NCBI GenBank assembly: GCA_903884655.1
Contig: CAISFO010000017.1
Location: 21,149 to 85,148 of the forward strand
Direction: 5' to 3'
Length of the DNA: 64,000 bases
Origin: an uncultured Holophagaceae bacterium
GTDB lineage: Bacteria; Acidobacteriota; Holophagae; Holophagales; Holophagaceae
A program made the position numbers and the translations under genes. Shown here piece by piece: positions 6,029 through 62,763 of this stretch. Below the pieces are notes generated by a model. It saw only the letters and a program-made list of their open reading frames with translations. It did not search any database and was not told the origin of the DNA. Within the stretch, counting starts at the first letter, position 1; each line of letters opens with the position of its first letter.

Positions 6029-6828
6029 TGGCGGTACCGGTCCTCCACCTGAACCTGGCTCCCCGCCCCAGCCTCTGGCGGCAGAGGCACCATGCCGTCG
6101 GCTGGATTTCCCTGGGGGTCGGCTGCCTGGTCCTTCTGGGGACAATTGGTTTCACCTGGCGCGCCTACCATCAGGCGAGTCGTGCGGGACGGGAAGCGAT
6201 CAGCCTTGGCGATGAAACCCGCCGCGCCGCGCGGCAGGAACAACAGCTCCAGGCCTCACTCCAGGACATGGACGCCAGCCGGGAGCAGTCCCGCTGGAAG
6301 CTCGCGGAACGGATCCTCCAGGAACGGAGCCTGCCCTGGTCCCGGCTCACCACGGAACTCGAGCAGGATCTGGTGCCGGACATGCGCCTGAAGGGGCTGC
6401 AGCGGGCCCGCAGCAACGCCCAGCAGGTGGTGATGAAACTCAAGGGCGAGGCCAGGACCCGCGAGGCCGAGGCCGCGTTCGTGGAAGCCCTGCGTGCCAC
6501 CCCGGTCTTCGCCCAGGTCATCCTGGAACGGGAATCCGAACGGACCGGCGGAGGCTGGGATTTCGAGATCAGCCTACCCACCGCGGCAGTGCCGCCCCCC
6601 TTCAAGGCCAAGGCCATCAGGCAGGCTCAGGCGGCCCCCGCCCCGGTGGCCATGCCTGCGACTCGACCCACGACCCCTGTCCGGCCCCAGCAGCCGCATC
6701 CCGTGGCGGTCGCCGCACCCGCTCCCGTTCCAGTCGCCAACCCGGCAGCCGTTGACACCGAAGCCGCGCCCAGGCGCCGTCCAGGGCGAACGCGCGTTCG
6801 GCCGAATACCCCGGGGGATCCCGAATGA
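6028..6828 (+). CDS. PilN-like fimbrial assembly protein
   Basis: It has a short cytoplasmic N-terminus, one TM helix (VGWISLGVGCLVLLGTIGFTW), a coiled coil, then a PilN-type periplasmic domain (RSLPWSRLTTELEQDLVPDMRLKGL...VVMKLKGEA) and a Pro/Ala-rich tail. Confidence 0.7.
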   Translation: MAVPVLHLNLAPRPSLWRQRHHAVGWISLGVGCLVLLGTIGFTWRAYHQASRAGREAISLGDETRRAARQEQQLQASLQDMDASREQSRWKLAERILQERSLPWSRLTTELEQDLVPDMRLKGLQRARSNAQQVVMKLKGEARTREAEAAFVEALRATPVFAQVILERESERTGGGWDFEISLPTAAVPPPFKAKAIRQAQAAPAPVAMPATRPTTPVRPQQPHPVAVAAPAPVPVANPAAVDTEAAPRRRPGRTRVRPNTPGDPE

Positions 6829-56929: not shown

Positions 56930-57658
56930 CTAATCCTTCACGAACGGACTGAAGTTGGTCCCCTCGTCGAATACATCCACGCCTTCGGCTTTCTTGAGGC
57001 CGTTTACCACCAGATAGGTGAGCGGCGTCACGGCGGCCTCGTAGATCACTTTGGCCAGGTAGCCCGAACCCGCCATGATCAGGATCGTCTTGACCGGCAG
57101 GGTGCCCGCGAAAAGACCAAAGGACACGATGAGGCTGTCCACCGCCTGCCCCGCCACCGTGGAACCGATGGTGCGCGTCCAGAGCAGGCGCCCCCTGGTC
57201 CACAGTTTCATCTTGGCCATCACGTAGCTGTTGACGAACTCGCCCACCCAGAACGCCGCCAGGCTCGCCACAATGCCTCGGGCAGCGGTGGTGAAGACGA
57301 TTTCGAAGGCTCGCTGGTGGTCCGCGGGCCAGCCGGGTGCCGGGGGGATCCAGACCATGAAGAGACCCATGGCCCCCATGAGCAGGCTGGCGAAGAAGCC
57401 CAGCCAGATGGCCCGGCGGCTGGCGCCATAGCCGTAGACCTCCGTGAACACGTCCCCGAAGATGTAGGTGATGGGGAAGAGCAGTTGGGCGCCACTGAAG
57501 ATGAAGGGCCCGATGGCCGTGGGCTTCTGCCCCACCAGGTTGCTGATGAGCAGCACGACGACGAAGGCGTGAGCCATCAGTTCATACCATTTGAACCGGG
57601 CTAGGGCATGGTCTTTGGCCTGGATGCGGGGCAGTTGGATTCGCATGGTGCCCATCAT
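56930..57658 (-). CDS. yhhQ: Queuosine precursor transporter (YhhQ/VUT family)
   Basis: FVVVLLISNLVGQK...LLFPITYIFGDVFTEVYGYGASRR is the VUT/DUF165 signature. The start is uncertain, lying between 57646 and 57700. Confidence 0.85.
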   Translation of the reverse strand: MMGTMRIQLPRIQAKDHALARFKWYELMAHAFVVVLLISNLVGQKPTAIGPFIFSGAQLLFPITYIFGDVFTEVYGYGASRRAIWLGFFASLLMGAMGLFMVWIPPAPGWPADHQRAFEIVFTTAARGIVASLAAFWVGEFVNSYVMAKMKLWTRGRLLWTRTIGSTVAGQAVDSLIVSFGLFAGTLPVKTILIMAGSGYLAKVIYEAAVTPLTYLVVNGLKKAEGVDVFDEGTNFSPFVKD

Positions 57659-57710
57659 GGCCGCAGGGCGCAGCAGGAGGAAAGCACTGCCTTCGGGCAA
57701 AGGTTGGACA

Positions 57711-60650
57711 TCATGTCACCTCCAGCACCGCCAGCCCGTCCTGCCGGGTGGATCTGCCACTGACACAGACGATCTCCCCCACGCGGAAGGGGCGCTGGCG
57801 CTTGCGGATGGCGTCGGGGAAGGCCACGGCCTCGCAGAGGCCGGTCTCGTCCTCGAAGGTGATGAACTGCATGCGCTCGCCCTTTTCGGTGGCCACATCC
57901 TTGTCCGCCACCACGAGGGCCCAGAATTTGAGGTGCTTGTTCGGAGTCACCACCTCCGCGGCCCGGTGGGGCCCGCTGCCCTTCCGCACCCGGGCCAGGG
58001 CCGCGGGGTGCAGGTCGAGGGTCAGGCCCATGGTGGCCATCTCCAGGTCGGCGCGGTCGAAGAGGTCCGTGGGGCGCGGGCGCACGCCGGCGGGCACGCC
58101 GCCCAGGCGCGCCCACATGAGGCGCGTGCGGTCGCCGTCCGGGGCCCAGCGGTCGAAGGTCCCGGCGGCGCAGAGCGCCTCCGCCGTGGTGACGCTGAGC
58201 TTCACCCGGCCCAGCAGGTCGTCCAGGTGCGCGAAGGGGCCTTGCTTGTCGCGTTCCTCCAGCAGCGCGCGGACCTCCTTCTCCTGGGCGCCGTGCACCT
58301 GCATGAGGCCCACCCGCACGGCCTGCTCGCCCTCGGCGCTGAAGGGCCACAGGGATTCATTCGCATCGGGGCCGCGCACGACGAGGCGGTGGCGCCGCGC
58401 ATCGCCCAGATAGGCGATGGCGGGGTAGTAGCCGCCCTGGTTGGTGATCACCGACGCGAAGAAGATGGCCGGATGGTGGGTCTTGATCCAGGCGCTCTCG
58501 AAGCTCACCTGGGCGTAGCTCGCCGAGTGGGGCTTGCAGAAGGAGTAGCCCGTGAAGGTGCGGATCATGTCCCAGGCCTCGTCCACGGTGGCCTGCCGCA
58601 CGCCGCGGGCCGCGGCGCCGCTGCGGAAGCGGGCCTCGAAGAAGGGCAGCTTGGCCTCGCAGTCGGGCTTGCCCAGCAGCTTGCGCAGCTGGTCGGCCTC
58701 GAAGTGGCTCCAGCCCGCCAGCGCCACGCAGACCTTGAGGACATCCTCCTGGTAGACCAGCACGCCGAAGCTTTCGGAGAGCAGCTCGCTGAAGACGGGA
58801 TCACTGGGCTCCCAGGCCTCCTCGCCCCGGGAGCGCTTCACGTAGCGGTCCACCCAGCGGTAGGCGGCGGGGCGGATGAGGCTGCTGTGGATCACCAGGG
58901 TCTCGAAGTCCCCCTTCCCCACCCGCTGCTGGAGCTGACGCGTGGCGGGGCTCTCGACGTAGAAGACGCCGATGCTGTCGCCGCGCTTCAGCAGGTCCTG
59001 GGTGGCGGGGTCGTGGCGGGAGTGGGTGCCGGGATCCCGGGGCACGCGGTCCCCCAGGATGTTGTAGGCATCGCGGATGACGGCGAGGCTGCGGTTGCCC
59101 AGCAGGTCGATCTTCACCAGCCCGTAGTTCTCCACGCCGTCCTTGTCCCAGGTGGTGGTGGACACGCTCTCCTTCGCGGGCGCGGGCTGGAAGGCCGCGT
59201 GCTCCCACAGGGGCCCGGGCGTGACGATGGTGCCGCCGGGGTGCACGGAGAACTGGTGGAAGTGCCCCTTCAGGGCCAGGGCCTGGCGCAGGATCGTGTC
59301 CCAGGCGGGATTCTCCGAGGCCCGCTCCAGGCCCCCCTCCCAGCCGCGCACGAAGCGGGCCAGCTGCTTCAGCTCGCTGTCGGGGCGCCCGTGGGCCTGG
59401 GCCACGGCCCGCAGCGCGCCCTTGGCCTTGAAGAAGGCGTGGTTGGACACCATGGCCACCCGGGCCCGGCCGTAGCGCTCGAAGACCGCCTGGATGACCT
59501 TGTCGCGCTCGTCCCAGGCGAAGTCGATGTCCATGTCCGGCGGATCCTTCCGCTCCTTCGTGAGGAAGCGCTCGAACATGAGGTTGGTGTCCACGGGATC
59601 CACATTGCTGAGGTGCAGGGCGTAGCTCACCAGGGAAGCGGCGCCGCTGCCCCGGCCGCAGATGCGCGTGGGCAGGCCCTCGCGGCTGAGGGCCAGCACG
59701 ATGTCCTGCACCAGCAGGAAGTAGCGGGCGAAGCCCTTGAAGGCGATGAGCGCCAGCTCCTGCTCCATGCGGGCCAGCAGCTCGCCCCGCAGCACCGGGA
59801 ACCGCGCCCGCACGCCCGACCACACCCGCTCCCGCAGGAGCTCGTCGAGGTCGGCGTCGTCCTCGCGCGGCGGGTGGCCGAAGGGCCGCGCCACCTCCCA
59901 CTTCCCCCAGTGGATCTGCCAGCCCGCGACGCGCTCCAGCACCGCGGCCGTGGCCCTTTCCACGGCGGGATCGCAGGAGGGGAAGCGGGCCTCCCAGTCC
60001 GCCCGCGGCACGGCGGCTTCGCTGGCATCCCACAGGGCTTCGGTGCGCACGAGGGTCGACTGCCGGGCGATGGCCCGCTTGAGCCGGTGCATCTCCAGGC
60101 CCTCGGCGGTGCGGAAGCGCAGCACCTGGGGCGCCACCACGGGAAGGCCCGCCGCCAGGGCCTTGCGAGCCTCCTGGGCGCGCCGGGGATGGGCCAGCAG
60201 GGCGGCGTAGAGGCCCTCCCGCAGCAGGGCGTCCAGGCCCCCCAGGTCGTCGGCCAGCAGCACGCAGTCCGCGGGCGGCTCCGCCTCGCCGAGGCCGGGA
60301 ATGGTGATGGGCGGATCGTGGTCGGCGTGGGCCTGGGCCGTGAGCAGGCGGTTGAGGGCCGCGTAGCCTGTGTCACTGAAGGGCAGCGCACCGACCTCGT
60401 GGCCCCGCCAGGTGAAGCGGCAGCCCAGGTGGAGGCGGAAGCCCGCCCAGCGCGGGTCCGGCGGCAGGCCCTCCAGCTCCCGGGACCTGTGGATCCACTC
60501 CAGGCTGTCCCGCAGCTTCGGGTAGCCCGCCAGGCCCCGGTCCCAGCAGACCAGGTCCCGGTAGCCCAGGCCCCGGGCCAGCCGCAGCAGCTGGGCCGCC
60601 GGGTAGACGCCTTCACCAAGGCTGAAATCGGAGATGCCGAGGGCGAACAT
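57711..60650 (-). CDS. dnaE2: Error-prone DNA polymerase (DnaE2/ImuC)
   Basis: The 979-aa product has a Pol III alpha core (GRGSGAASLVSYALHLSNVDPV, PDMDIDF, GLVKIDLLGNRSL, FCKPHSASYA). It lacks the tau/beta C-terminal extensions and lies downstream of imuB. Confidence 0.92.
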   Translation of the reverse strand: MFALGISDFSLGEGVYPAAQLLRLARGLGYRDLVCWDRGLAGYPKLRDSLEWIHRSRELEGLPPDPRWAGFRLHLGCRFTWRGHEVGALPFSDTGYAALNRLLTAQAHADHDPPITIPGLGEAEPPADCVLLADDLGGLDALLREGLYAALLAHPRRAQEARKALAAGLPVVAPQVLRFRTAEGLEMHRLKRAIARQSTLVRTEALWDASEAAVPRADWEARFPSCDPAVERATAAVLERVAGWQIHWGKWEVARPFGHPPREDDADLDELLRERVWSGVRARFPVLRGELLARMEQELALIAFKGFARYFLLVQDIVLALSREGLPTRICGRGSGAASLVSYALHLSNVDPVDTNLMFERFLTKERKDPPDMDIDFAWDERDKVIQAVFERYGRARVAMVSNHAFFKAKGALRAVAQAHGRPDSELKQLARFVRGWEGGLERASENPAWDTILRQALALKGHFHQFSVHPGGTIVTPGPLWEHAAFQPAPAKESVSTTTWDKDGVENYGLVKIDLLGNRSLAVIRDAYNILGDRVPRDPGTHSRHDPATQDLLKRGDSIGVFYVESPATRQLQQRVGKGDFETLVIHSSLIRPAAYRWVDRYVKRSRGEEAWEPSDPVFSELLSESFGVLVYQEDVLKVCVALAGWSHFEADQLRKLLGKPDCEAKLPFFEARFRSGAAARGVRQATVDEAWDMIRTFTGYSFCKPHSASYAQVSFESAWIKTHHPAIFFASVITNQGGYYPAIAYLGDARRHRLVVRGPDANESLWPFSAEGEQAVRVGLMQVHGAQEKEVRALLEERDKQGPFAHLDDLLGRVKLSVTTAEALCAAGTFDRWAPDGDRTRLMWARLGGVPAGVRPRPTDLFDRADLEMATMGLTLDLHPAALARVRKGSGPHRAAEVVTPNKHLKFWALVVADKDVATEKGERMQFITFEDETGLCEAVAFPDAIRKRQRPFRVGEIVCVSGRSTRQDGLAVLEVT

Positions 60651-60719
60651 GGGGAATCAATCGGAGGCTGCTCGCGGTCGCCTGCGGCGATCGCGAGACG
60701 GAACAACAGGGCGGTGATC

Positions 60720-61175
60720 TTAGGGTTGCCAGTCGCTGGGCAGGCCGCAGGCCTCGAGAACGGCGCGGAGGTAGGGGGTTCCAATGCGCAGGGCGCCCCG
60801 TTCGGCCAGGCTCACCAAGGCCTGGGAGCGGCCCATCCGTTCAGCGAGTTGAGTCTGGGTGAGACCCGCTTGGCGGCGGGCCGCGCGCAGATGCGGAGCC
60901 AGGACCTTGGCCCGGGCATCCGCTGCTGGCGCGCGGCGGCCCTCCAGCAGCCCCTGGATGGATAGATCCTCGTCCAGGCGGGGCCAGTGGATGCCGGTGC
61001 CGCGTCCGGTGAAGCGCCAGTCGGCGAGATCTCCGGCGGGGGCCGCCGCCAGCCTCGGGAAAAAGGCTAGCGGACAGGCCAGCTCCCGGCCGTCCTGGAG
61101 TTGGACGACCAGGCGCCCCCGCTCGAACCAGAGGTGCGCGGCGCGGGGAGGCTCAGGGTTCGCCAAAGTGCTCAT
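60720..61175 (-). CDS. DUF2442-like domain fused to XRE-family helix-turn-helix
   Basis: The N-terminal half (VVQLQDGRELACPLAFFPRLAAA...DWRFTGRGTGIHWPRLDEDLSIQGLL) matches the DUF2442 pattern. The C-terminal half has LRAARRQAGLTQTQLAERMGRSQALVSLAERG, an XRE HTH. The gene overlaps the DUF4160 gene by 23 nt. Confidence 0.75.
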   Translation of the reverse strand: MSTLANPEPPRAAHLWFERGRLVVQLQDGRELACPLAFFPRLAAAPAGDLADWRFTGRGTGIHWPRLDEDLSIQGLLEGRRAPAADARAKVLAPHLRAARRQAGLTQTQLAERMGRSQALVSLAERGALRIGTPYLRAVLEACGLPSDWQP

Positions 61176-61395
61176 GCCAGGCCTCGATGAAGCTCTCTCG
61201 ATGGGTCACGACGATGCCCGCCACCCGCTGGAGGTCCCGGGGCGTAAGGCCTCCCGGGTCCGCGACGGCGCCATCGTGCAGCCAGATTTTGGCGATGGCG
61301 TCGTCGCGCTCGACATGGACATGGGGCGGCTCGCGGGGTTTGTGGCTGTAGAAGAAGAACCGGTAGGGCCCTTCCCGGTGAATGGTGGGGGTCAT
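61153..61395 (-). CDS. DUF4160 domain protein
   Basis: The 80-aa product has YRFFFYSHKPREPPHVHVERDDAIAKIWL, the hallmark DUF4160 motif. Its start overlaps the imuB stop by 4 nt. Confidence 0.75.
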   Translation of the reverse strand: MTPTIHREGPYRFFFYSHKPREPPHVHVERDDAIAKIWLHDGAVADPGGLTPRDLQRVAGIVVTHRESFIEAWHEHFGEP

Positions 61396-62552
61396 CGGGC
61401 CTCCATGAATATTAGGCTTTTATTGGCTTGTTTCAAGCTTGATTCCACCCACCCCGGCAGGATGGCCTGGTCCGGGAAGCGGCGGCGGAGGCGGGCCAGC
61501 ACGGGCTCCAGGCGGTCCAGGCGGGCGTGGAGGGGATCCTGGAAGAGGCCCCGCTCCCGGCCCAGGCCCCAGGCCAGGCGCAGTTCCACCTCCCGCACCA
61601 GGAGGCGCCGGGTGGCCCCCGCCAGGAAGGCCTGCTGCATCCGCCGGGCCAGGGCCAGGGGCGGCGTGGTCAGGTCCTCGGGTGCGGCCCGCCAGGTGTG
61701 GGGCTCGCCGTCCACATCCCACCAGCGCAGCACCAGCTTCCGGGGGCTGCGGGGATCGGACCAGAGCCACTCCAGGCAGCGGGCGGCCAGGGCCACTTCT
61801 TCGGGCAGGCGGGGGGGCTGGAGGCGCCAGCCGTGGCGGGCGTGGCCGGGCCGCTCCGTGAGCAGGGGCAGCTTCGGCCGGTCCTCGCCCCGCACCCGGG
61901 CCCGCAGGTCCGGCGCGAGCTTGGGGTGGGTCAGCTCCGCCAGCACCGGCAGGGGCACGAGCTGCAGGTCGCCGAAGAAGCGCAGGCCCAGGCGGTGGAA
62001 GCGCTCGTGGAGGCGCGGCGCCAGGTCCGGCAGGCGGCGCAAAGGCTGGGGGGCAAGGAAGGTGCTCTCGGAGCCATCCGCCACCAGCTCCAGCTGGTGC
62101 TCGACATGGGCGGCCAGCTGGGCGGCGGTGGCGCTCAGGGACAGGCCCCCGTGGCTGGCCCAGCCGTGCCGCTCGGTCAGCTCCCGGCGCATGCGCTGGG
62201 CCGTGTCCGCCAGGGGTCCGTAGATGCGCTGGGTGCCCTGGAGCTCCACCAGGGCCTCGCCCATGCGCATGAGCTGGCCCTGGGGCGTCCAGTGCTGGAG
62301 GAAGTCGCCCAGGCTGACCTGGGCCTCCCACCAGACCTGGGGCGAGGGGTCCAGCACCCGCAGACCCGGCGCGATCCGCAGGGCCTGGTCCAGGGGCAGC
62401 CCCGGCCCCAGCCCCTCAGCCCGGCCCAGGCGGTTCACGAACCAGAGGCTGGGGGAGCGCGGGCTCTCGGGGTTCAGGAAGGCCAGGGGCCGGTCCCGCA
62501 GGGCCCCGTCCCGGCCACAGGCCAGCTGGAACGGCAGCTCGGGAACCCACAT
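61392..62552 (-). CDS. imuB: ImuB (Y-family polymerase-like, catalytically inactive type)
   Basis: MWVPELPFQLA...RDRPLAF...GLRVL is a Y-family palm/fingers-like N-terminus without the canonical acidic catalytic triad context. It lies upstream of dnaE2. I prefer the start at 62552 (MWVPELPF) over the track start at 62624. Confidence 0.85.
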   Translation of the reverse strand: MWVPELPFQLACGRDGALRDRPLAFLNPESPRSPSLWFVNRLGRAEGLGPGLPLDQALRIAPGLRVLDPSPQVWWEAQVSLGDFLQHWTPQGQLMRMGEALVELQGTQRIYGPLADTAQRMRRELTERHGWASHGGLSLSATAAQLAAHVEHQLELVADGSESTFLAPQPLRRLPDLAPRLHERFHRLGLRFFGDLQLVPLPVLAELTHPKLAPDLRARVRGEDRPKLPLLTERPGHARHGWRLQPPRLPEEVALAARCLEWLWSDPRSPRKLVLRWWDVDGEPHTWRAAPEDLTTPPLALARRMQQAFLAGATRRLLVREVELRLAWGLGRERGLFQDPLHARLDRLEPVLARLRRRFPDQAILPGWVESSLKQANKSLIFMEAR

Positions 62553-62763
62553 CGCCAGCACCGGAACCTCCAGGGGGATCCAAGTATGGCGAAATTTTAG
62601 CGAAATACAAGTCTTCAGGCCCAACCAAGGCGCGTGGGCTTCGCCCGCGCACCAGGTGGATAGCGGGGTCCGGGTTCTTCGTCAGGCCGGGATCAACCGA
62701 ATGCCGCCTCCATTCGTAGCTCCCCCTGGGGTCGGTCGGTGGGCCCCCTATCGAGAGGGGACC

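Follow-up and report, generated by a model that had tools for sequence, protein, structure and literature searches.

A DUF4160/DUF2442 gene pair between iPolY and dnaE2

The window analysed here is a 64-kb stretch of contig CAISFO010000017.1 from an uncultured Holophagaceae bacterium, and the subject of this work is a pair of small genes that lies, on the minus strand, within a row of five. The row opens with iPolY, which encodes an inactive homologue of Y-family polymerases (called imuB in an earlier, sequence-only reading of this DNA), continues with the two small genes and with a gene for a DnaE2-like C-family polymerase (dnaE2), and closes with a gene for a Vut_1/YhhQ transporter (Table 1). 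The start of the first small gene overlaps the iPolY stop by 4 nt in the form ATGA, and the second small gene overlaps the first by 23 nt, both of which can be read directly in the sequence. The window is identical, in the region of the locus, to a 117-kb metagenome contig in public databases (ENA ERZ27313602 k141_453764), for which genes had been called independently, with the same four genes as the result; the reading frames and both overlaps of the sequence-only reading are present where it had placed them. For iPolY the most likely start is GTG 62561, which has GGAGG upstream and was also chosen in the public call.

Profile searches judged against Pfam gathering cut-offs place the 80-aa product of the first small gene in DUF4160 (PF13711, E 6.6e-19; score 68.3 bits, the cut-off being 23; the match spans positions 2-65 of the 65 in the profile) and residues 14-81 of the 151-aa product of the second in DUF2442 (PF10387, E 3.6e-17), both of which pass, while residues 92-149 of the latter match the XRE type of helix-turn-helix (HTH) domain (HTH_31, E 9e-11; HTH_3, E 2e-8). 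The domain assignments made earlier from the letters alone hold up accordingly, with E-values of 1e-17 to 1e-19 for the two DUF families. The larger protein also matches the DUF2442 structure PDB 3k8r (E 3e-8), and no PDB relative of the DUF4160 protein was found by sequence search. The fusion of DUF2442 to an HTH is common to about sixty protein clusters, the weaker matches being mostly stand-alone DUF2442 or HTH proteins.

Pairs of this kind had been described in the sequence-only reading as modules of unknown function, a description that is outdated. DhiT/DhiA of Dickeya dadantii 3937 is a validated type II toxin-antitoxin (TA) module made of DUF4160 and DUF2442, in which the toxin gene comes first and the two genes overlap; DhiT arrests growth in Dickeya and in Escherichia coli, and DhiA both neutralises it and represses the dhiTA promoter, on which the toxin-antitoxin complex has the stronger repressing effect (PMC8198452). 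In a later comparative study, DUF4160 is classed as an effector domain, one that DUF2442 usually follows and for which no confident structural homologue was found (PMC12065111), and a study of Thermus plasmids proposed a DUF4160/DUF2442-type pair as a TA module for plasmid persistence. The pair in the window shares with the Dickeya module the two Pfam domains, a toxin of ~80 aa encoded first, an antitoxin gene that overlaps its end, a promoter directly upstream of the toxin gene (predicted here) and a patchy distribution, and the TA-like organisation noticed earlier is thus borne out as a toxin-first, overlapping unit of the DhiTA domain pair. It differs in that its antitoxin has an additional C-terminal XRE HTH (the Dickeya antitoxin is listed with DUF2442 only), in that the overlap is 23 nt instead of 3-4 nt, and in that the module, known from sequence alone, is lodged in a polymerase operon.

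Comparison with relatives indicates how it came to lie there. The module begins with a promoter and a Shine-Dalgarno sequence, goes on with the genes for toxin and antitoxin, and ends in a 3' spacer that contains a hairpin; the promoter is the sole promoter-like site in 2.4 kb (expected 0.0 +/- 0.2). In the closest relative, Candidatus Geothrix skivensis (L001), whose iPolY and DnaE2 are 96% and 93% identical to those of the window and which has the same upstream DUF4395 gene, the site is empty: iPolY ends in ...ILPGWVGRGA* and only 4 nt separate it from the dnaE2 ATG, the sequence reading ...CCGGGCTGGGTGGGGCGAGGTGCGTGAACCCATG(dnaE2). The window diverges from this relative right after ...CCGGGGTGGGTGG, where the insert begins, in the window with the AT-rich block CTTGAAAcaagccaataaaagccTAATATtcatGGAGGcccgATG. 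The promoter block CTTGAAACAAGCCAATAAAAGCCTAATAT heads every DUF4160-type insert and is kept in all 18 carriers (18/18). An excision seems to have left its mark in L022, where 23 nt of the module promoter (CTTGAAACAAGCCAATAAAAGCC) are fused to the dnaE2 ATG (about 6318-6360) as a deletion scar.

The last 17 residues of iPolY in the window (ESSLKQANKSLIFMEAR) are translated from the inserted promoter, and their stop TGA overlaps the toxin ATG. The ATGA overlap is found in 8 of the 12 loci with an intact pair; the other four have none, their iPolY entering the block in another frame and stopping 27 nt upstream, and the same change of frame, with a stop 24-27 nt upstream, is seen in all toxin-deleted loci with a detectable toxin start. 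Because the upstream reading frame simply runs through the inserted promoter block, the apparent coupling is best taken as a by-product of the point at which the module landed, and the earlier view of a pair translationally coupled to imuB, and for that reason not an independent insertion, is misleading. With the insertion, a stop-to-start junction of 4-7 nt between iPolY and dnaE2 was replaced by 741 nt, and no intrinsic terminator was found between the antitoxin gene and dnaE2.

Table 1. Features of the locus in window coordinates, all on the minus strand; promoters, operator and gene functions are predicted
Feature	Position	Strand	Remarks
iPolY, inactive Y-family polymerase homologue	61392..62561	-	389 aa
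DUF4160 (DhiT-family) putative toxin gene	61153..61395	-	80 aa, PPHVHVE motif
DUF2442 (DhiA-family) putative antitoxin gene with C-terminal XRE HTH	60720..61175	-	151 aa
DnaE2-like C-family polymerase	57711..60650	-	979 aa
Vut_1/YhhQ transporter	56930..57700	-	
Whole inserted module	60651..61444	-	~0.78 kb; edges approximate, +/- ~6 nt
Module sigma-70-like promoter	61409..61436	-	TTGAAA, 16 nt, TAATAT
Module Shine-Dalgarno sequence GGAGG	61400..61404	-	followed by toxin start codon
Hairpin	60671..60697	-	12-bp stem, 3-nt loop (CTCGCGATCGCC GCA GGCGACCGCGAG), 21 nt before dnaE2 ATG
Cassette promoter/operator	62582..62611	-	TTGTAT, 17-nt spacer, ATACTT
Direct repeat TTTCGC-N5-TTTCGC in promoter spacer	62589..62605	-	

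Occupants of the iPolY-dnaE2 junction in Holophagaceae

A scan of one genome per species yielded 80 Holophagaceae loci with an orthologous cassette, and the iPolY-dnaE2 arrangement is kept in all loci that have both genes on the contig. Among the 72 junctions that could be assessed, 33 hold no insert and 39 hold inserts of 0.3-2.7 kb, all of them in the gap of a few nt that separates the dnaE2 ATG from a conserved ...VLPGW motif; nowhere else in the operon would an insertion leave both genes intact. In the Geothrix clade at least 13 junctions are empty, 18 hold a DhiTA-type insert (12 intact, 6 toxin-deleted) and 11 hold a BrnT/BrnA-type insert; a survey of orthologous cassettes for the pair, as the sequence-only reading had proposed, thus recovers it intact in this clade alongside many empty sites. 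The states of the junction are interleaved among nearest neighbours in a tree of the Y-family protein: of three sister loci, L018 has BrnTA, L019 a DhiTA-type module and L020 an empty site, and L023, nested within L024-L037, is a further case.

Other occupants are unrelated to DhiTA. The BrnT/BrnA-like inserts have a promoter of their own (TTGACA...TACATT), and several have decayed toxins. Among Holophaga-side or deeper-branching loci, the junction of L078 holds a HigB/HigA-like pair and a ParE-like gene, and those of L044 and L047 hold PD-(D/E)XK genes of the GxxExxY type flanked by repeats; within the Geothrix clade, L005 has a Uma2 nuclease gene beside a BrnA gene. We rejected an integron-cassette interpretation of the junction, there being no integrase in the +/-10 kb gene table of the public contig and no attC-like core sites.

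Homologues of the pair outside the operon were seen in mobile settings. Antitoxin homologues that are 50-65% identical have the same DUF4160 partner with the same overlap of 23-26 nt, and these pairs adjoin a relaxase gene (L092), integrase genes (L086, L087) or insertion sequence (IS) transposase genes (L088, L095); in L093 and L094 the setting is a phage-like series of small genes, and in L085 the neighbours are unrelated housekeeping genes. None of the pairs of this similarity among the loci examined has a polymerase gene beside it.

We conclude, with a probability of roughly 0.8, that the pair is a type II TA module of the DhiT/DhiA family, in an HTH-fused variant, that was inserted as a self-contained unit between the iPolY stop and the dnaE2 start, and that the absence of imuA is not compensated by it. 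On this account the pair is a passenger and not a missing part of the mutasome. Of the two possibilities that the sequence-only reading had left standing, capture of an addiction-like module is the one favoured by the DhiTA domains, the empty sites, the module's own promoter, the unrelated TA modules at the same junction and the mobile contexts of distant homologues. The simplest history is a single early insertion in Geothrix followed by losses, by replacement with BrnTA and by decay of the toxin, the replacement having probably occurred by recombination through the conserved flanking genes.

If the module behaves as DhiTA and other type II systems do, the 80-aa protein would inhibit growth, the DUF2442 domain would bind and neutralise it, and a dimer of the HTH domain would repress the TTGAAA...TAATAT promoter with the toxin as co-repressor. 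The layout further suggests that the module would be transcribed both from the cassette promoter and from its own and, because no intrinsic terminator follows the module, that both transcripts would continue into dnaE2; the tight stop-to-start coupling of iPolY and dnaE2 would be abolished by the insertion. A comparable arrangement is known from E. coli, where an SOS promoter lies upstream of dinB and an autoregulated TA promoter lies before yafN, and yafNO is read from both (PMC2814082). In dinB-yafN-yafO-yafP as in the window, a Y-family gene is followed immediately by a co-directional TA module, with an operon promoter and a TA promoter (predicted here). The two cases differ in that the TA families are unrelated (YafO/YafN), that the E. 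coli polymerase is active, that its TA module sits at the end of the polymerase gene whereas here it splits a stop/start-coupled pair of subunit genes, and that the occupant of the junction here varies between close relatives.

The nuclease genes at the junction also bear on the idea that the pair is an anti-phage TA system of the abortive-infection kind, its position in the operon being incidental. DUF4160 occurs as an effector domain in the Menshen defence system (PMC12065111), and both the nucleases (PD-(D/E)XK GxxExxY, Uma2) and the TA modules that have settled at the junction are of types typical of defence islands. We nevertheless hold this to be quite unlikely: PADLOC models did not match the toxin and matched the antitoxin only through generic HTH profiles, the gene table lists no other defence genes within +/-10 kb, and a defence role would in any event be a sub-case of the TA explanation and not an alternative to it.

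The finding of a DhiTA-family module in an imuA-less iPolY-DnaE2 operon holds up but is for the most part unremarkable. Its modest novelty lies in the evolutionary picture, in which one inter-cistronic junction of a mutagenesis operon has received TA modules again and again, at least three to four unrelated families having settled in a gap of a few nucleotides, echoing dinB-yafNO; the species of one genus display gain, swap and toxin loss as well as excision with a scar, and translesion-polymerase operons seem to attract TA modules. For annotation, DUF4160/DUF2442 pairs are to be read as DhiTA-type TA modules, and a pair of small genes in a repair operon should not be called a missing subunit from its position alone. 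Several carriers and non-carriers are cultured Geothrix isolates (the pair is present in G. oryzisoli SG189, L015, and G. paludis SG195, L019; BrnTA in G. fermentans DSM 14018 and G. fuzhouensis SG12; and the site is empty in G. terrae SG184, G. campi SG10 and G. limicola), which makes the effect of the insertion on the expression and stoichiometry of the mutagenic polymerase directly testable.

Two further observations concern the junction sequences themselves. Short repeats of the form CTTCGTGTCCTTCGTGGAG fill the junction in L016, L019, L025, L031, L043, L063, L073 and L015 (70 nt before dnaE2), and in opposite orientation such repeats translate as ...STKDTKK...; other tandem repeat units likewise fill junctions (L044-L047 and L051 are listed), including the repeats that flank the GxxExxY PD-(D/E)XK genes in L044 and L047. 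The junction repeats resemble a repeat family of the REP-like or miniature mobile kind. One locus of the set, L040 (JAJTBC010000014.1), comes from a metagenome-assembled genome labelled 'Bacillota bacterium'; its Y-family protein is 75% identical to that of Geothrix and nests in the Geothrix clade, and the contig is probably mis-binned.

Selection, toxin loss and retention of the antitoxin

Both small genes are under purifying selection, with dN/dS values of 0.21 for the toxin and 0.13 for the antitoxin, compared to 0.31 for iPolY and 0.28 for DnaE2. Six loci are without a functional toxin, and because the alignment shows two different deletion junctions among them (L007 and L025 versus L031, L035, L043 and L073), the toxin was deleted at least twice. 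Both deletions are in frame, remove toxin residues ~29-78, and keep the module promoter and an intact antitoxin reading frame; a toxin stub of 30 codons (MTPT...PPHVHVEP*) remains, which ends at the original stop, and the antitoxin start is rebuilt. Short microhomologies (CATG; GTCGA/GCGAA) mark the deletion junctions.

After the loss of its partner the antitoxin stays under constraint, with dN/dS values of 0.11-0.29 in the larger toxin-less group (6 sequence pairs) and of 0.12 between L007 and L025 (a single pair). The constraint is unevenly distributed along the protein: as estimated from 6-7 sequence pairs, the toxin-binding DUF2442 half is relaxed about three-fold in the toxin-less lineage (0.30 vs 0.10), and the HTH half is barely relaxed (0.17 vs 0.12). 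Such retention fits either an orphan antitoxin that is kept against related toxins or a retained DNA-binding role, and it is the only line of evidence that leads past a simple passenger.

These and several other results weigh against taking the pair for an inserted passenger of the DhiTA kind. The toxin scores only 23.7 bits against the NCBIfam toxin_DhiT equivalog NF048015, far below the cut-off of 100, a further difference from the Dickeya module because of which the 80-aa protein is best described as a member of the DUF4160/DhiT family and not as a DhiT orthologue. The module promoter and the read-through into dnaE2 are predictions from consensus matches, and the searches for imuA and lexA (below) covered only the window, the gene table around it and the fetched loci. 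Synonymous divergence is at least as high in the module (dS 0.47-0.54) as in the flanking genes (0.32-0.35), which is not the mark of a short-lived selfish insertion, and the module tree is partly congruent with the tree of the Y-family gene. Of the genes at the locus, that of the antitoxin is under the strongest constraint, and its survival through two independent toxin deletions hints at a role that is independent of the toxin. The age of the module also bears on the notion, raised in the sequence-only reading, that the pair might be a strain-specific insertion: with dS values at or above those of its neighbours, it is an old resident of the Geothrix clade and not a recent arrival in one strain.

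The hairpin in the 3' spacer (Table 1) needs to be considered beside these data. It lacks a T-tract and occurs once in the window, and at a fixed distance of 20-21 nt from the dnaE2 ATG it is found in 11 loci (the window and 10 others), behind inserts of the DhiTA or the BrnTA type and exclusively in insert-bearing loci; a conserved GCAACCTTCGATTGG comes after it. Elsewhere in the 80 relatives' loci no copy was found on the cassette (+) strand, the sole strand scanned. Two of its stem pairs show compensatory changes, and the single-sequence fold has z = -1.3. A role as a terminator is unlikely for lack of a T-tract, a genome-wide REP element is not supported by the single copy in the window, and a role as operator of the HTH antitoxin was rejected, since BrnTA inserts have the hairpin behind them as well and it is hence not peculiar to the HTH protein.

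Taken together, the hints of a role beyond addiction could be explained by partial domestication, in which the HTH antitoxin and its promoter were kept because they drive dnaE2 from a second, damage-independent promoter or buffer read-through, the antitoxin acting as a local regulator. The lower dN/dS of the antitoxin relative to both iPolY and DnaE2 is in keeping with this, as are the sparing of the promoter and the antitoxin frame by two independent in-frame toxin deletions, the relaxation on the DUF2442 half with little on the HTH half, the lack of a terminator before dnaE2 and the fixed position of a hairpin that only insert carriers possess. However, orphan antitoxins are also retained to neutralise related toxins encoded elsewhere in a genome, the estimates of selection after toxin loss come from the few sequence pairs given above, the hairpin is shared with BrnTA inserts, and no operator was found in common between the module promoter and the dnaE2-proximal sequence. 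Moreover, since at least 13 Geothrix-clade cassettes are free of any insert (we treat these as working) and 11 carry BrnTA, no regulator of the antitoxin's kind is required. Partial domestication is therefore an unlikely alternative. The bolder form of the idea, that the junction is a selected docking site and not just a tolerated gap, and that the HTH antitoxin was co-opted as a damage-independent second regulator or promoter of DnaE2, is likewise an outside chance; if true, domestication of a TA module for the adjustment of stress-induced mutagenesis would have occurred in nature.

The imuA-less cassette and its predicted control elements

The sequence-only reading had placed the pair in an imuB-dnaE2 cassette from which imuA was missing, and the first part of that description is only partly right. 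iPolY matches Pfam IMS (PF00817, E 8e-9), but its catalytic residues are lost (Gly stands at the position of DinB D103, and the sequence around D8 at the N-terminus has become MWVPELPF), so that it appears to be a catalytically dead Y-family homologue. Proteins of its family, for which a large protein search returned only close Holophagaceae relatives, have 372-396 aa with PF00817 alone (372-376 aa without the insert-derived tail) and end directly after ...LEPxLARLRRRFPxxxVLPGW, whereas canonical ImuB has about 470-530 aa and includes ImuB-C, a region that iPolY does not have. A tblastn search with a Burkholderia ImuB seed gave 0 high-scoring segment pairs (HSPs) in the window and in all fetched loci, and among 72,556 plasmids iPolY had no match at E <= 1e-8, plasmid-borne ImuB included.

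The polymerase is DnaE2-like in the same qualified sense. Its Pfam domains are DNA_pol3_alpha, finger, HHH_6 and OB, and among NCBIfam models it scores almost equally against the error-prone polymerase (NF004225, 453 bits against a cut-off of 939) and against DnaE (NF004226, 450 bits). It is about 30% identical to the canonical DnaE2 that is associated with ImuA, and its best plasmid match (39% identity) is the polymerase of an imuA-less cluster of Desulfosarcina ovata. No PHP domain was matched by Pfam, and in residues 1-270 (59840-60650, minus strand) the usual His-rich start is replaced by MFALGISDFSLGEG, because of which we take the PHP domain to be probably degenerate. The Y-family gene is thus not a canonical imuB, and the polymerase gene is only dnaE2-like.

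The absence of imuA, on the other hand, was corroborated. The neighbour upstream of iPolY is, by the public gene call, a divergent DUF4395 gene, and the gene table of that contig lists neither imuA nor lexA within +/-10 kb of the locus; two ImuA seeds (Burkholderia and Sphingobium) gave 0 HSPs by tblastn in the window and in all fetched loci, and a Desulfosarcina LexA seed likewise had no match, either in the window or across some 1 Mb of relatives' loci. The only tblastn seed that matched Holophagaceae proteins was a 376-aa protein of Desulfosarcina (37 matches). It belongs to the closest annotated relative of the cassette, on the D. ovata plasmid Do28_1 (L082, 2871-8646), where lexA, a DUF72 gene, the gene of this Y-family-like protein (annotated only as 'hypothetical') and a 'DNA polymerase III alpha' gene follow one another with no imuA.

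Polymerases of the DnaE2B and DnaE2X types occur in genomes that have neither imuA nor imuB, where their partners are Y-family proteins, some active and some inactive; a RecA-NT motif at the C-terminus of these partners is predicted to bring in RecA, which would stand in for ImuA (PMC6511836, PMC12926913; both from one group). Holophagaceae fall outside the published polymerase surveys, and neither Geothrix nor Holophaga is in the survey tables. The cassette resembles those systems, with their gbDinB2-like PolY and RecA, in having a dead Y-family gene directly upstream of a DnaE2-type polymerase without imuA, and in the short Y-family protein without ImuB-C. At the iPolY C-terminus, a clamp-motif-like (R/G)(G/S)LF is followed by a helix-strand segment. 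In hhalign comparisons, LDRLEPVLARLRRRFPDQAILP of iPolY fell on RecA residues 5-29 and RGLF on the UmuC clamp motif LNLF, in the expected register, but similarity was not significant (P 0.064 and 0.38). No RecA-NT match (DUF4113-type) was found by Pfam in the iPolY C-terminus even at E <= 10, and a hidden Markov model (HMM) of the family C-terminus retrieved neither RecA nor UmuC of E. coli. With the canonical (lexA-)imuA-imuB-dnaE2 cassette the present one shares the order of an inactive Y-family gene and a C-family polymerase of the error-prone type, with an operator-bearing promoter upstream (a candidate here); it differs in having no ImuA or ImuA', in a Y-family protein ~100 aa shorter than ImuB and without detectable similarity to Burkholderia ImuB, and in the distance of its polymerase, which has no detectable PHP domain, from ImuA-associated DnaE2. 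The cassette therefore appears to work like the imuA-less iPolY-DnaE2(-RecA) type, as a candidate and not a proven member, and Holophagaceae 'imuB-dnaE2' is better named an imuA-less iPolY-DnaE2 cassette. Because iPolY is short and apparently dead, is not a canonical ImuB, and fits the published imuA-less DnaE2-iPolY(-RecA) systems, the missing imuA is a property of the cassette type and needs no substitute.

Control of the cassette likewise seems to be separate from the pair. Upstream of the Y-family gene, a block cTTGtwTTTCGcTAAAAwTTCGCCATACTTGGATCC..GGAGG..GTG is kept in most of the 80 loci, with or without an insert; it is the single match of its kind in the window, where no other gene has a TTTCG-N6-TTTCG motif upstream. 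Its direct repeat (Table 1) is a candidate damage-response operator of the LexA (SOS) type, and we found no published description of TTTCGC-N5-TTTCGC as an SOS-type operator of Holophagaceae. In L078, where 2.7 kb of TA genes lie between the cassette genes, the block is duplicated just before dnaE2 (9282 and 10008), which argues both that it is the control element of the cassette and that separating iPolY from dnaE2 creates pressure to restore control of dnaE2. There is no evident operator common to the cassette promoter and the TA promoter, and hence nothing that ties the cassette operator to the HTH antitoxin.

The other proposal of the sequence-only reading was that the two small proteins replace ImuA or act as a LexA-type repressor of iPolY-DnaE2. 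The pair does lie inside the operon, on the same strand and overlapping the iPolY stop, with no imuA or lexA nearby; its second protein has a DNA-binding domain, and it has long persisted in the Geothrix clade. On the other hand, neither the closest relative nor the majority of orthologous cassettes have the pair (at least 33 of the 72 have no insert whatever), it can be exchanged for an unrelated BrnTA-like pair, its toxin-like member is deleted in six loci, and the promoter/operator is conserved independently of it. Homologous pairs reside on plasmids, in islands and in IS-flanked DNA, and published imuA-less DnaE2 systems are already explained by recruitment of RecA. A role as mutasome accessory is thus extremely improbable and close to refuted, and we retain the interpretation of the pair as an inserted TA module.

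The surroundings of the cassette are less constant than the cassette itself. The yhhQ/Vut_1 gene follows dnaE2 after 10 nt by the longest reading frame or 52 nt by the public gene call, in line with the 10-50 nt given earlier, and the only other locus with a dnaE2-yhhQ neighbourhood is L077, where the two genes are 1.1 kb apart; upstream, the DUF4395 gene recurs only in L001. The G+C content of the cassette (57600-62600) is 0.69-0.78, compared to 0.55-0.65 in the DNA on both sides. Because of this contrast and the differing flanking genes, the cassette itself may be mobile or may be located in a variable region. In L019 and L007, tandem GGACTGA/GAGGACTGA repeats lie directly upstream of the cassette promoter, ~130 nt before the Y-family gene.

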